DNA of 45,327 bases, taken from the IMG/VR virus record IMGVR_UViG_2737471992_000006, one strand, 5' to 3'. Made by a program: the position numbers and the translations under genes. The DNA is from a virus. Its lineage: Duplodnaviria; Heunggongvirae; Uroviricota; Caudoviricetes. Shown here in pieces: positions 34,927 to 39,484 of the stretch; position 1 is the stretch's first letter, and every line of letters begins with the position of its first letter. The notes below the pieces were generated by a model. It was not told the origin of the DNA. It was given only the letters and a program-made list of their open reading frames with translations, and did no database searches.

Positions 34927-35159
34927 GCTGCACCTCCGAGATGCTTCATGTTTTTTCCGGAGCGAAAGGTTATAAGCGGCATACTGACGCGGTAATTACG
35001 GCCCAGCGGTTCACAAATCACTTTCTGACATTCACGGTCAACCAGGCTAACACGTAGAACATGCCCTGCAGGCGTGGTGTACCACTGCCCAACTGTAGGA
35101 ATTGATGTTTTTTTACGCTGAAGTAAACGGCGAATATTGAGGCTCAACAGATTAAGCAT
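34923..35159 (-). CDS. small basic protein translationally coupled to the replication initiator (cII position)
   Basis: 78 aa; GGAGGG Shine-Dalgarno; its stop overlaps the O-like ATG (ATGA). Confidence 0.5.
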   Translation of the reverse strand: MLNLLSLNIRRLLQRKKTSIPTVGQWYTTPAGHVLRVSLVDRECQKVICEPLGRNYRVSMPLITFRSGKNMKHLGGAA

Positions 35160-35988
35160 GACGATGCCCTCCGCTGATATTCAGGAGACGGTGAATATGA
35201 AAATTAGCCTTATCCGCCAGACGAATACGTTCAGCCTGCAAGTTAAGAAGGGTTTCTACCAAAACCTGATGCGCCTGCGGATCCGAAAGAGTTACCTTGC
35301 GCAGAGCACGTAGTGCAGTTGTTACATAACTGAGTTTATGTAAGTCTTCATCATTCAGACGAGTGAGGGCTGGGACAGTAGCCATGATGGCAGCCTCCTT
35401 GATCGGTGAAATACTTCCATCACCGGAAACGCCAATTTCGCTGGTGGTGAACTGAACGGGGTTGGCGTAACCGGTGATCAAGGAAACCGGCGCATCTTTC
35501 GATGCCCCCGCCCAGCCCACCATAACTTTGATGTGAGCAAATGCGGACGATAAAAAAGACGCTGGCGCGTCATATATCGCCTTGATCAATTCCAGGACGC
35601 CAATCCCGGCACCCGCTTTATAAGGTGCCTGAACAGTGTAACGTCCCGGAATGGCAGAATCAATGTGCTGGTGGTCCTTCACACTCAACAAAATCACGCC
35701 TGAATTTCCACAAAGGACTAAAGCACTCATGCGGGTAGTCTTTGCGAAGATAGATAACGCGCTGTGTTTCTGGCTCCCAACGAATAACATGAACATAAAG
35801 TCCTCTTCTGTCACGAAACCAGCGGTTAAGTTCCTGCACAACTCGCCCCCCACAGTCAGGTAAAGTTCTCTGTGGTTACTTACAGCCAGGTGATTTGGTA
35901 ATCTGCATTCATGCCGTAACAACAGGTGTTCAGCGACGCTGGCCACCAGCTGTTGCGACAAACGGTTATTTGCCGTTAAACTGTTCAT
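35152..35988 (-). CDS. hypothetical 278-aa protein in the early-right operon
   Basis: ATG overlaps the upstream stop (ATGA); no recognisable motif (no Walker A box). Confidence 0.6.
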   Translation of the reverse strand: MNSLTANNRLSQQLVASVAEHLLLRHECRLPNHLAVSNHRELYLTVGGELCRNLTAGFVTEEDFMFMLFVGSQKHSALSIFAKTTRMSALVLCGNSGVILLSVKDHQHIDSAIPGRYTVQAPYKAGAGIGVLELIKAIYDAPASFLSSAFAHIKVMVGWAGASKDAPVSLITGYANPVQFTTSEIGVSGDGSISPIKEAAIMATVPALTRLNDEDLHKLSYVTTALRALRKVTLSDPQAHQVLVETLLNLQAERIRLADKANFHIHRLLNISGGHRHA

Positions 35989-36548
35989 GCGTTAGTTTCT
36001 CCACAGACACAAAACGCCACGACGCCCGGAGCTGCACACTCGCGGGCGTCACTCTTTTCTGGAGCGCAAAAGATTTTGTAGACCAGTGCTGCATGCTCCT
36101 GGAGCTTCGAAATTGACAGATACAACTCATCATTAATTGCTGTCTGCTCGTGTGGCTCCACTACCCCATCTTCGATTGCCGAACGAATCTGCTTTGAGTA
36201 ACTCCCGATCTGTTCGATGACTTCCAGCAGGCGCTGGTTTATATCGGCGTTCTCTACTTCCTCAATTTCAGGAAGCGATACAAACACCCCACCAGCAGAC
36301 TGTGCGACAGCATCCGCAATGTAGTGAGTGCCAGCCGCGCGCTGTAAAATCATTGCCCATCCCAGCGGGAAAATCTGATCGCCATCGGCACGAAGGCGGT
36401 TAAATAATGCGTTCTCTGTTACATCCAGCCACTCAGCAGCTTCAGCGTAACCCCCCGGCAACGCCGCGATAGTTTTTCTGACAGCTTTCACGTACCACTC
36501 AGGCTGTTTTTCTACTTTCCAGTGATGCTTACCCACGGTTAGCCTCAT
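35985..36548 (-). CDS. hypothetical 187-aa protein, first gene after cro (possible CII-like/YdaT-like regulator)
   Basis: Position and operon coupling only; the YdaT assignment is a guess. Start may be the GTG at 36536. Confidence 0.5.
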   Translation of the reverse strand: MRLTVGKHHWKVEKQPEWYVKAVRKTIAALPGGYAEAAEWLDVTENALFNRLRADGDQIFPLGWAMILQRAAGTHYIADAVAQSAGGVFVSLPEIEEVENADINQRLLEVIEQIGSYSKQIRSAIEDGVVEPHEQTAINDELYLSISKLQEHAALVYKIFCAPEKSDARECAAPGVVAFCVCGETNA

Positions 36549-36579
36549 CGTTCTGTGGTTAAAAATTGAAGGTGTTCTG

Positions 36580-36780
36580 TTAATCTTTCGGATAGATATC
36601 CGGTCTTAAGTCAGATTTCGTAATTGCACCTGACGTGCATTGCTCAAGTTTTTTAGCCAGCACAAAACTGGCTTTTTTATAACCATTGAAAACTAGCCGT
36701 AAGTAGCCTGGTGTTGAGCCAACTTTTCCGGCCAACTCGCCCTGCTGTTCTTTGGTTAAAGAGTCCCAATACGCTTTCAT
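36580..36780 (-). CDS. Cro-like small helix-turn-helix repressor
   Basis: 66 aa from the ATG at 36780 (GGAGGT Shine-Dalgarno); divergent from the repressor gene; the 167-aa ORF-track version is an upstream extension through the operator region. Confidence 0.7.
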   Translation of the reverse strand: MKAYWDSLTKEQQGELAGKVGSTPGYLRLVFNGYKKASFVLAKKLEQCTSGAITKSDLRPDIYPKD

Positions 36781-36870
36781 ACAATATGTACCTCCGATAT
36801 ACATATTACATGATTGAGATGAACCTTCAAGGTACTTGTACCCTATCGGTACAAAGGTTTTAATTTCGTT
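36781..36870. promoter_or_regulatory. divergent immunity promoter/operator region
   Basis: 90 bp between the cro-like and repressor genes with GTAC-centred inverted repeats (GGTAC-TT-GTACC, ATGTACC, CGGTAC). Confidence 0.5.
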
Positions 36871-37545
36871 ATGAAAACAGTCCATGACATCCGGCGGTCT
36901 AACGCCAGAAAACTGAGAGATGGTGTTGGCGGGAATTCTTCCTTTGCCACCATGATTGATCGCGAGCCAACCCAGACCAGCAGGTTTATGGGAGATGGTG
37001 CTACTAAAAATATCGGTGACAGCATGGCACGGCACATCGAAAAATGTTTCGACCTGCCTGTCGGATGGCTTGATCAAGAACACCAGACAACAAACATCAC
37101 AAAAAAACCTGATGTTTCAATTACTAACAAACAAATAACGTTAGTCCCTGTCATATCATGGGTACAGGCCGGAGCATGGAAAGAAGTTGGCTATTCTGAG
37201 GTTGATTTGAGCACAGCAGAAACTTATCCCTGCCCTGTACCCTGTGGCGAAATGACTTATATCTTGCGGGTGATTGGTGATTCAATGATTGATGAGTACC
37301 GCCCGGGAGACATGATTTTTGTAGATCCTGAAGTCCCTGCCTGCCACGGTGACGACGTTATTGCATTGATGCACGATACGGGCGAAACCACCTTTAAGCG
37401 GTTGATAGAAGATGGAACACAGCGTTACCTCAAAGCATTAAACCCAAACTGGCCTGAACCTTACATTAAGATCAACGGTAATTGCTCTATAATTGGTACA
37501 GTAATTTTCTCAGGAAAACCAAGAAGATACAAAATAAAGGCCTAA
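36871..37545 (+). CDS. CI-type prophage repressor with S24 (LexA-like) autopeptidase domain
   Basis: 224 aa; N-terminal helix-turn-helix ending ...IEKCFDLPVGWLD; C-terminal domain with the Ser nucleophile in VIGDSM and a downstream Lys. Confidence 0.85.
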   Translation: MKTVHDIRRSNARKLRDGVGGNSSFATMIDREPTQTSRFMGDGATKNIGDSMARHIEKCFDLPVGWLDQEHQTTNITKKPDVSITNKQITLVPVISWVQAGAWKEVGYSEVDLSTAETYPCPVPCGEMTYILRVIGDSMIDEYRPGDMIFVDPEVPACHGDDVIALMHDTGETTFKRLIEDGTQRYLKALNPNWPEPYIKINGNCSIIGTVIFSGKPRRYKIKA

Positions 37546-37556
37546 TCAATATTTAT

Positions 37557-37580
37557 AACCTGCTTCGGCAGGTTTTTTTA
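37557..37580 (+). terminator. intrinsic terminator after the repressor gene
   Basis: AACCTGC-TTCG-GCAGGTT followed by TTTTTTT. Confidence 0.65.
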
Positions 37581-37583
37581 TAC

Positions 37584-37617
37584 TTGACAATGTACCCTTG
37601 AGATACATAATGTATCT
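37584..37617 (+). promoter_or_regulatory. strong sigma70 promoter (PL analogue) with an overlapping 17-bp perfect palindrome
   Basis: TTGACA (37584..37589), 16-nt spacer, CATAAT (37606..37611); palindrome AGATACAT-A-ATGTATCT at 37601..37617; ATGTACC motif shared with the operator region. Confidence 0.55.
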
Positions 37618-38047
37618 AAAAGAAACATGCCACAGGCAAGATTAAACAAAATTTGGTTGTAACACGGCGTATGGCACATGCGTCGTTAGCGGTCTGGGGA
37701 CGTTAAAGGGGACAATCCACTCCTTGCTCGGGCAAACAAACCAGGTAGCCGGAATGTGCAAGTCAATGAGGATGCTGATAAGACGCCTAACCAGCGTGGC
37801 GATTCGGTTTGACGCCTGGGAAGAGACCAGGGTGCAACGATGAGGGCATTTATGGAACCGCGACAAAGTGTGGTGCCGTAACTGGCTAAGTGCTCTCAGC
37901 GTTGTGGTGAATGCGCAGGCTGATGCGCGAAAGACATTGCAGCTATTGCGGAAAAGAGCTGTTCGGCGGGGCAATTAAACGCCCGTGAGAGTCTGAAATA
38001 ACCGCAAGCCGGAGATCAGCACCGGTCACCACAACAGCCACTGCTTT

Positions 38048-38094
38048 GGCGGTACCAGTTTGTACACTTGCTTCCGGCTGGTACCGCTCTTTTT
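38048..38094 (+). terminator. intrinsic terminator in the early-left leader (tL1-like), overlapping a boxA-like motif
   Basis: 10-bp stem GCGGTACCAG / CTGGTACCGC, then TCTTTTT; CGCTCTTTTTACAAAA resembles boxA. Confidence 0.55.
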
Positions 38095-38231
38095 ACAAAA
38101 CAGAGAAGAGCATCACCGGACGACGGGCTCATAACCCAATCCATCCGGGCGGCAGTCACCGCAGGTGTTCTTCTCTGTTTTGTGGAGAAACCAACCGACC
38201 TTGCAGGGTCGATATGATGAGGAGCAGCAAA

Positions 38232-38594
38232 ATGGCTAGCGAACGCAGTACTGATGTGCAGGCATTTATCGGGGAGCTGGACGGCGGCGTATTTGAAACC
38301 AAAATCGGCGCAGTTCTCAGTGAAGTCGCTTCCGGTGTGATGAACACGAAAACCAAAGGTAAGGTCTCGCTCAACCTGGAAATCGAACCGTTTGATGAGA
38401 ACCGTGTGAAAATAAAACACAAACTCTCATATGTTCGCCCGACTAACCTCGGGAAAATTTCCGAAGAAGACACCACCGAAACGCCGATGTATGTCAATCG
38501 CGGTGGTCGCCTGACTATTCTGCAGGAAGACCAGGGACAATTACTGACTCTTGCCGGTGAACCTGACGGAAAACTCCGCGCAGCAGGTCATTAA
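38232..38594 (+). CDS. hypothetical early-left protein (resembles CPS-53 prophage YfdP by recollection)
   Basis: 120 aa from the ATG at 38232 (GAGGAG Shine-Dalgarno); the ORF-track start at 38046 lies inside the terminator and is rejected. Confidence 0.6.
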   Translation: MASERSTDVQAFIGELDGGVFETKIGAVLSEVASGVMNTKTKGKVSLNLEIEPFDENRVKIKHKLSYVRPTNLGKISEEDTTETPMYVNRGGRLTILQEDQGQLLTLAGEPDGKLRAAGH

Positions 38595-38659
38595 TATCGT
38601 TCTTAATTAACTGATTATTTATCTCATCACTGAATATCTTTATATAGTGAGGACTTATT

Positions 38660-39484
38660 ATGTCTCAGAACTTAGACGCAACCGCAATTAATCAAATCCA
38701 TGCCCTTATTTCTGCTCAGGGTGTTAATGAAATTATCAGTAAGATTGGTGCCGATGCTGTGGCATTGCCTGAGAATTTCCGCATTCATGATCTGGAAAAA
38801 TTTAATTTAAATCGCTTCCGTTTCCGTGGTGCGCTTTCCACTGCCAGCATCGATGACTTTACCCGTTATTCTAAAGATCTTGCAGATGAAGGCACCCGCT
38901 GCTTTATCGATGCCGATAATATGCGAGCCGTCAGTGTGCTTAACCTGGGTACTATTGATGAACCAGGTCACGCAGATAACACCGCCACCCTCAAACTGAA
39001 AAAGACAGCACCGTTTTCTGCTCTGTTGTCTGTTAATGGCGAGCGTAACTCCCAGAAGTCACTGGCAGAATGGATTGAAGACTGGGCCGACTACCTTGTG
39101 GGCTTTGATGCTAATGGTGACACCATTCAGGCAACCAAAGCGGCTGCGGCAGTCCGTAAAATCACAATTGAAGCAAACCAGACCGCTGATTTTGAAGACA
39201 ATGACTTCAGCGGCAAACGCTCTCTGATGGAGTCTGTCGAAGCGAAAACCAAAGACATTATGCCAGTGGCATTTGAATTTAAATGCGTTCCGTTTGAAGG
39301 CCTGAAAGAACGTCCGTTTAAATTACGCCTCAGCATTATCACTGGCGATCGTCCTGTACTGGTTCTGCGCATTATTCAGCTGGAAGCGATGCAGGAAGAA
39401 ATGGCTAACGAATTTCGTGATCTGCTTGTTGAGAAATTCAAAGACAGCAAAGTAGAAACCTTTATTGGTACTTTCACCGCCTGA
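38660..39484 (+). CDS. hypothetical 274-aa early protein (YfdQ-like)
   Basis: Intact ORF with GAGGA Shine-Dalgarno; recalled similarity to the uncharacterised CPS-53 protein YfdQ. Confidence 0.7.

Follow-up and report, generated by a model that had tools for sequence, protein, structure and literature searches.

What occupies the approximately 620 nt that follow the early-left promoter of a lambdoid prophage when they hold no credible open reading frame (ORF)? The locus that raises this question lies at positions 37584-38231 of a 45,327-nt stretch of DNA (IMG/VR record IMGVR_UViG_2737471992_000006, hereafter the window), which is an SfV/mEp460/cdtI-type lambdoid prophage with E. coli as host. 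The original prediction described a PL-like promoter, a structured untranslated leader of about 600 nt and no recognizable N gene, and it offered factor-independent RNA antitermination, a non-homologous antiterminator, or a long noncoding RNA (ncRNA) ending at the 38048 terminator as explanations. We conclude that the interval is probably a cassette array of ncRNA genes, which separates the repressor-controlled early-left promoter from the first gene for a protein. Support for this idea is provided by two-sided compensatory changes in the elements termed A, B, T and X2 below, which argue for selection at the RNA level, and by the fact that different parts of the interval match unrelated phages, which argues for modularity and mobility. 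The last of the earlier explanations comes closest to this picture, although the 600 nt appear to be a chain of independent RNA genes rather than one leader. If so, DNA that has been left blank or given conflicting "hypothetical proteins" would be assigned to four or more conserved RNA genes. Some part of the interval is present in roughly half of the complete E. coli genomes (2666 of 5426) and in many phage families. The elements of the interval, with modules A, X1, B, T and X2 delimited by side-by-side reading of related sequences, are as follows.

37584-37611, plus strand: early-left (PL-like) sigma-70 promoter, TTGACA at 37584-37589, 16-nt spacer, CATAAT at 37606-37611
37601-37617: perfect 17-bp palindrome AGATACATAATGTATCT over the -10, presumed repressor operator
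37645-37833, plus strand: module A, conserved lead-in UUUGGUUGUAAC and a 171-nt pseudoknotted RNA (37663-37833), from covariation
37663-37833, plus strand: parts of module A, namely 5' hairpin, variable hairpin 1, 19-mer, pseudoknot hairpin and terminal hairpin
37835-37904, plus strand: module X1, long closing stem of CAACGAUGAGGGCAUU (37835-37850) with AAGUGCUCUCAGCGUUG (37888-37904) and a variable interior, fold z = -4.2
37901-38035, plus strand: module B, tRNA-shaped RNA, from covariation
37901-37909 with 38027-38035, plus strand: helix P1 of module B
37913-37928, plus strand: H1 of module B, loop GGCUGA
37929-38007, plus strand: variable insert of module B, about 78 nt
38008-38026, plus strand: H2 of module B, loop AGAUCAGCA, running straight into the 3' strand of P1
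38048-38094, plus strand: T, terminator-like hairpin, 13-bp stem (38048-38060 with 38076-38088), 15-nt loop, CUUUUU at 38089-38094
38095-38183, plus strand: module X2, 22-25-bp stem (38095-38119 with 38159-38183) closing a three-way junction, fold z = -8.2

As had been stated, the ORF list contains no plus-strand ORF of at least 60 aa between 37612 and the ATG at 38232; moreover, neither the short ORFs nor the two minus-strand ORFs (110 and 134 aa) in the interval match a Pfam family. In the records of mEp460 (L002, 2962-3515) and Ayreon (L001, 3141-3556), coding sequences annotated as "hypothetical protein" lie over A, X1, B and X2; their strand and position vary by record, and no two agree. 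Rfam searches, run at the gathering threshold for the window and at E = 10 for 37400-38400, returned C4 and isrK elsewhere and otherwise chance hits on the repressor terminator. No put-like or nut-like RNA was among these hits. ARAGORN finds no tRNA in the window, and Rfam gives no tRNA match in 37400-38400 at E = 10; for transfer-messenger RNA (tmRNA), the output of ARAGORN -m is empty across the window, and 37612-38232 holds no tag-like frame. The whole interval folds better than shuffled sequences on both strands (z about -3.9), and this fold therefore cannot give the RNA strand, which is provided by covariation.

The mosaic make-up of the interval is evident from BLAST searches against phages. 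Strain NR3736 has the interval at 100% identity and phage mEp460 at 99%, the latter only from 37645 onward. Separate stretches of the 648 nt match separate, unrelated phages: 37651-37907 matches P1, P7 and epsilon15-like podophages, 37888-38036 matches the P1-like phage RCS47, and 38047-38231 matches SfV, SfIV and ST64B. In addition, the ends alone of the second stretch (about 40 and 30 nt, at ~92% identity) match T1-like, N4-like, Taipeivirus, Lastavirus, Edwardsiella, Erwinia and Cronobacter phages.

Module A shows compensatory change across an alignment (A2) of 27 diverse sequences, in which its five helices are paired in 98.5% of cells, a value inflated by the way in which the sequences were collected, and in which two-sided changes affect 11 pairs (58 cells), a count equaled in 0 of 500 shuffles. 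An invariant 19-mer, GGUAGCCGGAAUGUGCAAG, is located at 37744-37762, and a hairpin loop at 37789-37792 pairs with downstream residues 37806-37809 to form a pseudoknot that also covaries, CACC pairing with GGUG in most sequences and AACC with GGUU in the window type. A further predicted pseudoknot, GGCACAU with AUGUGC, is invariant across the alignment. No Rfam family matches module A at E = 10 over 37400-38400. Elsewhere, A is found after tRNA-Ile in P1 and P7 and before tRNA-Arg in epsilon15-like (phiV10-type) phages.

It is A, if anything, that would act in factor-independent processive antitermination, by binding polymerase like the put RNA of phage HK022. In HK022, putL and putR follow the two early promoters, each consists of two adjacent stem-loops, and polymerase becomes terminator-resistant without protein factors. 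The present interval likewise lies just downstream of a lambdoid early promoter in a phage without N; A lies within ~45 nt of the predicted transcription start in the window, and within 5-30 nt of a promoter-like site in several other phages, carries the invariant 19-mer and precedes T. Of the features that define HK022 put or the nut/N system of lambda, however, paired PL and PR copies, boxB and N are all absent here, and A is a 171-nt double pseudoknot rather than two tandem stem-loops. No related element is seen behind the PR-side promoter, and repeats of any part of 37612-38232 elsewhere in the window are limited to chance-level 10-14-mers. Furthermore, A follows a tRNA in the ban operon of P1, and it is also located in short epsilon15-like A-X-tRNA-Arg units that have convergent genes behind them and at a genome end past the lysis genes, while SfV and ST64B keep T without A. 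Modules are found in contexts where processive antitermination would serve no purpose, which include the tRNA arrays of virulent phages, short RNA-only operons in epsilon15-like phages and the genome end just mentioned. As a result, the put-like mechanism advanced in the original prediction now seems improbable.

For module B, the alignment (A1) comprises 70 distinct scaffolds, and 15 of the 24 pairs are changed on both sides (62 cells), which was matched in 0 of 500 shuffles and is not approached by any slid register. In two copies P1 has been wholly replaced, by GAUUGGAUG/CAUCCAAUC and by GCAGAUG/CAUCUGC. Changes on one side are G-U wobbles on the plus strand only, which identifies the plus strand as the RNA strand, and the minimum-energy fold of the single sequence gives the same helices. 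The conserved core of P1 has 7 bp (columns 4-10 with 49-55), and the 5-bp H2 has zero spacer before the P1 3' strand, so that the two have the dimensions of the acceptor and T stems of a tRNA. This 7-bp/5-bp stack, the second hairpin past an AAU linker between P1 and H1, and the occurrence of B in the slots of tRNA genes all accord with a tRNA-like shape. Nevertheless, B is not a true tRNA, the second loop being AGAUCAGCA and P1 not being followed by CCA. The two loops are mutually complementary over 5 nt (GCUGA/UCAGC), and the insert between the hairpins is hypervariable, with lengths of 12 to 204 nt across copies. A hammerhead- or hepatitis delta virus (HDV)-like reading of B was considered by eye and rejected, since CUGAUG lacks the conserved GAAA after it and the helix order does not fit.

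In several arrays, a copy of B precedes a tRNA gene by 6-11 nt or follows one by 3 nt. The module follows tRNA-Thr in RCS47 and is also present in T1-like, N4-like, Taipeivirus and Lastavirus phages; in phage swi2, the match is located 165 nt ahead of a tRNA. A 25-nt motif at the 5' end of B is unchanged in 51 GTDB species, chiefly Enterobacterales but also beta-, alpha- and delta-proteobacteria. In prophage-like regions (L194-L244), the motif is identical in Janthinobacterium, Massilia, Undibacterium, Xenophilus, Marinobacterium, Aeromonas, Martelella and a Geobacteraceae genome. Judged by this identity, conservation outside Enterobacterales is unusually strong for a noncoding phage element.

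The architecture of B recalls STnc100 (RF02076), an expressed prophage small RNA (sRNA) of Salmonella that is a relative of PasD, which is an abundant and stable prophage sRNA of pathogenic E. coli recovered with Hfq by the ligation and sequencing of interacting RNAs (RIL-seq). The literature describes STnc100, like PasD, as a stable transcript associated with Hfq. B shares with STnc100 a closing stem UGGUG/CACCA, the AAU linker, two constant hairpins and a variable middle. The second constant hairpin of STnc100 is CCGG...CCGG and is followed by an intrinsic terminator, so that B with T reproduces the layout; in the Stx2 phage Min27, the STnc100 gene consists of promoter, core, short linker and intrinsic terminator, and T lies 12 nt past B in the window, while in four related prophages a promoter is located 12 nt ahead of B. 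Both B and STnc100/PasD are found in lambdoid prophages and near phage tRNA genes. B differs in its loops, which are mutually complementary, in being embedded in an array with A and X, and in its position in the early-left transcript behind the repressor gene, whereas STnc100 lies behind Q or stx. When B-like copies from P1/RCS47 and ST64B are compared with RF02076, they score 33-38 bits over positions 31-147 of the model (gathering threshold 47); their first 15 nt and P1 are as in B, and their second hairpin is of the STnc100 type. A covariance model of the B scaffold, which copes badly with the long insert and splits the match, finds a third, insert-free B-like copy in P1 and RCS47. The link therefore depends on shared architecture and intermediate sequences, as neither model finds the other's members (see below), and B is classed as a structural relative of STnc100 and not as a family member. 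The PasA-D sRNAs as a group were rejected as relatives because of their positions in the late region; the PasD/STnc100 fold alone is relevant. On this reading, the orphan sRNAs STnc100 and PasD would join a far larger tRNA-associated family that combines one scaffold with hypervariable inserts.

X-type modules have a recognizable family of stem sequences around hypervariable interiors, and the stems exhibit compensatory variants (AAGAGCAUU/AGUGCUCUU, AAGGGUAUU/AGUACCCUU, GAGAACACUGG/CCAGUGUUCUC and AAUGACACUU/GAGUGUCAUU). In other phages these modules are placed after a tRNA, A or A' (a tag module described below) and before B or a tRNA. An automated test for 12-mer stems with at least 11 of 12 pairs scored 74 of 101 real against 26 of 101 shuffled sequences, the weak separation arising because G-U pairs were allowed. 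Canonical T-arm hairpins are frequent in the X interiors of other phages, and T-arm-like hairpins that do not belong to tRNAs, counted within 400 nt of A or B, number 31 on the module strand versus 0 on the opposite strand.

The stem of X2 is the second long-range stem of the original prediction, which is borne out by its fold and by covariation in relatives, both of the long stem and of the arm described next (ACACAACACACAAGAGC.../...GCUCUUUUGUGUUGUGU, and CCGGA/UCCGG changed to CCAGG/CCUGG). One of the arms within X2 ends in GGG-CUCAUAA-CCC, and the second arm is variable. Residues 38124-38137 (CGGGCTCATAACCC) are an exact 14-nt match to the anticodon stem-loop (ASL) of metZ, the initiator tRNA-fMet of E. 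coli, and by our own arithmetic about 4e-4 chance matches to any tRNA anticodon arm are expected in 620 nt. Folding predicts that the 7-nt loop of this arm is open. The motif GGG-NN-CAU-AW-CCC-AAUC recurs inside differently closed X-type stems in P1 (two copies), RCS47, ST64B and others, and the positions of GGG, CAU and CCC are constant while adjacent loop bases vary. The thrS operator of E. coli is a precedent for a tRNA anticodon-arm mimic in an mRNA leader. X2 resembles it in placing a copy of an anticodon stem-loop in an mRNA leader, ~95 nt ahead of a start codon, but differs in that the arm is that of the initiator tRNA and is also present in RNA-only arrays of P1, far from start codons. 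An exact copy of the initiator anticodon arm in a phage RNA would point to an unexplored link with initiation or with toxins that cleave tRNA-fMet. Rfam has no family that matches A, X or the tRNA-arm mimic, and searches of the open-access literature on phage tmRNA-like genes, tRNA-adjacent phage RNAs and initiator-arm mimics yielded no account of A, of X or of the fMet-arm copy.

Modules recur singly in lambdoid, P1-like, epsilon15-like, T1-like, N4-like and Ackermannviridae phages, where they share the strand of tRNA genes and often abut them. Three scans of IMG/VR each gave at least 120 matches, and in 302 of 320 collected loci the modules and tRNAs all lie on one strand; about one-sixth of the loci have the yfdP context. 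The orders observed include A-B-ASL (the window type), A-tRNA-Arg, X-B and the long P1-type array A'-tRNA-Asn-tRNA-Thr-B-X-ASL-B-X-ASL-tRNA-A. Further recurrent RNA-like modules are located after A or B, namely CCCAGACGAUAUCUGAGUGGCU..AAAAACAGAUGGGAGCCGGUGGAAUCCCGGCACACAAC and AUCAGCCAUUCACGCUAAGCAUC..GGUGCUUAGCGGGACUGGAAGAG (e.g. after A in L248, L265, L273, L036, L081 and L194, and after B in L006 and L007). Large phage and prophage ncRNAs of the ROOL and GOLLD types typically lie beside tRNA genes and have a conserved core with a variable periphery (Rfam; PMC12286853). The interval differs from these in that its ~500 nt consist of separable modules, found alone or in varied order, with Proteobacteria as hosts, and the ROOL and GOLLD covariance models match neither the window at gathering threshold nor 37400-38400 at E = 10.

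In P1-like, T1-like, N4-like and Taipeivirus phages, a tmRNA-like tag module, A', takes the place that A has in the window (at ~620 in L007, ~571 in L008, ~800 in L013, ~869 in L009 (RCS47), and in many IMG/VR loci). Its reading frame is AUAAAU GCA AAC GAU GAU ... UAA, with 10-residue tags such as ANDDLMMVAA, ANDDVVLMAA and ANEEMYLAVA, and these tags have synonymous DNA variants, e.g. four distinct DNAs for ANDDVVLMAA. Rfam tmRNA models match the tag region only, below threshold, ARAGORN makes no call, no alanine-type tRNA-like domain was found, and the A' modules have no similarity to E. coli ssrA past the tag start. In a 2014 census, phage tmRNAs were listed only in mycobacteriophages and Bacillus phage G. 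In P1 itself (L005 = 69010-73194; 463-1032), the annotated genes plp and upl run along the minus strand, antisense to the 3' end of tRNA-Thr, two initiator-arm X-type modules and two plus-strand B-like copies, and plp and upl may be mis-annotations over an RNA island.

Hairpin T, which had been predicted as a strong intrinsic terminator overlapping a boxA-like motif, is strong by calculation (-21.2 kcal/mol, z = -5.2) and was missed by a simple terminator scan only because its loop exceeds 8 nt. Its sequence behaves as expected of an intrinsic terminator, since the U-tract is kept while the stem covaries (GGUACC to GGUGCC/GGCACC in one relative, GGCGGUAACA/UGUUACCGCC in two others) or is replaced, an unrelated hairpin with CCUUUUU being located at this position in ST64B. 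The A-X1-B transcript, and with it the B sRNA unit, presumably has its 3' end at T. In every relative examined, a hairpin with a U-tract directly precedes X2 and the yfdP-like gene; this holds also for SfV and ST64B, which lack the A-X1-B of the window, ST64B having its own X and a B-like copy and SfV neither. The conserved position makes attenuation of the early-left operon at T plausible, and a leader in which T gates the operon, a phage or host factor allows passage and the upstream RNAs are passengers would be compatible with an array of RNA genes. The covarying or exchanged stem, the strong fold and the missing N-like gene fit this arrangement as well; set against it are that no candidate antiterminator or recognition site was identified, that a 15-nt loop suggests partial rather than tight termination, and that the core-then-terminator layout of STnc100 is simply the end of an sRNA gene. 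We regard such gating as possible, if on balance rather unlikely. SfV-type and mEp460-type phages lack the N/nut scheme and have a conserved terminator-like hairpin before the early-left genes instead.

The boxA-like string that accompanies T, CGCTCTTTTTAC at 38085, is the sole one in the interval, and it bears on the idea of a lambda-type N/nut system in which this string and the long hairpin that follows it form a nut site for an unrecognized N protein. In lambda, a nut site with boxA followed by a boxB hairpin (5-bp stem, GNRNA pentaloop) is present in both early operons, and N, a protein with an arginine-rich motif, is the first early-left gene. Here the string is simply part of T, consisting of the 3' arm and the U-tract, and in relatives it changes along with the covarying stem. 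No boxA (CGCUCUUUAACAA-like) is found on the PR side, and no boxB-like hairpin with a 5-bp stem and pentaloop is present in 37612-38232 or in the PR-side transcript. In agreement with the original prediction, the first downstream gene is not N-like; it encodes a YfdP-like protein of 120 aa without a Pfam family, and Pfam scans of the neighbors and local ORFs reveal no arginine-rich or N-family protein among the YfdP-like, DUF2303, HD-domain and Ead/Ea22 products. N/nut-type antitermination is thus largely refuted and hardly credible.

The modules might, alternatively, be decayed remnants of tRNAs or tmRNAs, or DNA-level recombination linkers without RNA function that are carried by mosaic recombination. 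They do lie at mosaic junctions, their shared ends CACAAC/GUUGUGG could act as linkers, and the T-arm and anticodon-arm fragments resemble tRNA debris. Remnants or linkers would not, however, account for the numerous compensatory changes on both sides of helices in A, B, T and X2, the strand-specific wobble pairs, the T-arm bias of 31 versus 0, a 25-nt motif that is identical across proteobacterial classes, or the retention of GGG/CAU/CCC while neighboring loop bases vary. We consider this explanation very unlikely.

Release of repressor from the palindromic operator should allow polymerase to start near 37618 and to transcribe A, X1 and B without encountering coding sequence, and each of these modules folds as a separate domain, with support from covariation. 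If the interval is an array of ncRNA genes, many transcripts would end at T, giving a primary RNA of ~475 nt whose 3' part, B and T, is built like STnc100/PasD, whereas read-through past T would place X2 and its initiator anticodon-arm copy at the head of the yfdP-yfdQ-yfdR early operon mRNA. Host enzymes of tRNA and rRNA maturation may cut the array at module boundaries, an idea based on the occupation of tRNA-gene slots by modules elsewhere; candidates are RNase P, cutting at the tRNA-like stack of 7 and 5 bp in B, RNase III, cutting at the long stems of X, and RNase E. With low confidence, and by analogy with STnc100/PasD, B could act in trans, the scaffold conferring stability and the insert specificity for a target or partner. 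We offer with similarly low confidence the suggestions that the X2 arm and the T-arm-like hairpins mimic parts of tRNA and bind or divert a host factor recognizing the initiator anticodon arm, for which a VapC-type nuclease, MetRS and the 30S P site would be candidates, and that A, through its invariant 19-mer, binds some conserved host component.

Several points weigh against these conclusions. Both alignments were gathered by sequence patterns and pairing filters, which inflates the paired percentages, so that only two-sided changes count as evidence. The B kissing loop, a predicted contact only, never varies except for one change of G-C to G-U, and the other pseudoknot predicted in A is invariant. 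The B of the window gives no match to RF02076 even at E = 10, and at E = 1 the B-scaffold model misses both the STnc100 of Min27 and the ST64B copy. Within the window, complements of the B insert or of other modules are limited to chance-level 10-14-mers, and the fMet-arm copy of X2 has no tie to any particular host factor. Where transcription starts, that it terminates at T, and how the RNAs are processed and how stable they are remain inferences; a large loop such as that of T usually weakens termination; and PL is presumably silent in the lysogen, which would confine any role in trans to induction or infection.

A broader and more doubtful proposal, which we put forward tentatively, is that proteobacterial phages from many families carry exchangeable RNA islands in which tRNA genes are interleaved with mimics of translation RNAs as a counter-defense or takeover toolkit. 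The mimics would include B as a whole tRNA shape, the initiator anticodon arm in modules of the X2 type, T-arms inside X, and tmRNA-style tag templates that lack a tRNA-like domain (A', in P1-like, T1-like, N4-like and Ackermannviridae phages). In this prophage, an island wired to the first early promoter would make these RNAs the earliest product on induction, and they might then decoy or modulate the tRNA-directed nucleases of the host, its ribosome rescue or its initiation. P1, mEp460 and Ayreon on K-12, and ST64B in Salmonella SL1344, would be tractable models.

The remaining features of the locus are as follows.

36871-37545: S24-peptidase cI-type repressor gene, Peptidase_S24 E = 1.5e-26
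37557-37574, plus strand: intrinsic terminator of the repressor gene, 7-bp stem, 4-nt loop, then TTTTTTT
38196-38234, plus strand: small hairpin GACCUUGCAGGGUC, Shine-Dalgarno AGGAG (38220-38224) and ATG of the yfdP-like gene (38232), from sequence and the ORF list
38232-38594, plus strand: yfdP-like gene, 120 aa, without a Pfam family, opening the early-left operon

The small hairpin folds no better than shuffles (z = -1.0). Downstream of the yfdP-like gene are genes for DUF2303, HD-domain phosphohydrolase and Ead/Ea22 proteins, and divergent from the repressor gene are a Cro-like gene, a CII (CP76) gene and the immunity region. The PL-like promoter has 11 of 12 consensus matches and the top score within 36400-38800, although that region has no excess of promoter-like sites overall (3 found versus 3.6 expected), and a promoter is annotated at the equivalent position in the record of phage Ayreon. 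Both this promoter and the palindrome that contains its -10 thus agree with the original description. The palindrome occurs once in the 45-kb window even when 3 mismatches are allowed (chance expectation 0.06), and it falls in the immunity-specific segment, identity with mEp460 beginning only at 37645; we infer that it is the operator of the repressor. Between the repressor and cro-like genes, 36777-36813 holds an imperfect inverted repeat, TCATACAATATGTA/TACATATTACATGA, and because its half-sites resemble the palindrome, this divergent promoter region probably contains OR-type operators.

The C4 RNA of P1 and P7 and the CI RNA of P4 (RF01695) are matured by RNase P as tRNA-like substrates. 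They are similar to the RNAs proposed for the interval in being phage RNAs excised from an operon leader, with a long closing stem around two hairpins, but they act through loops complementary to sites in their own operon, and no such sites for B were found in the window. The M3 RNA of phi80 was considered as another relative processed by RNase P and rejected, as it is an annotated oop homologue elsewhere in the phi80 genome. Rfam gives no C4 match in 37400-38400. The PR operon of the window does contain a full-length C4 (82 bits) together with isrK (64 bits), at 35440-35628 on the minus strand. This pair lies within a 278-aa ORF (35152-35988) that is annotated as "immunity region" in relatives, and the sole Pfam hit of the ORF, Phage_ASH (residues 117-210), falls over the same DNA as C4 and isrK. 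The Phage_ASH domain call may thus be the translation of two RNA genes.

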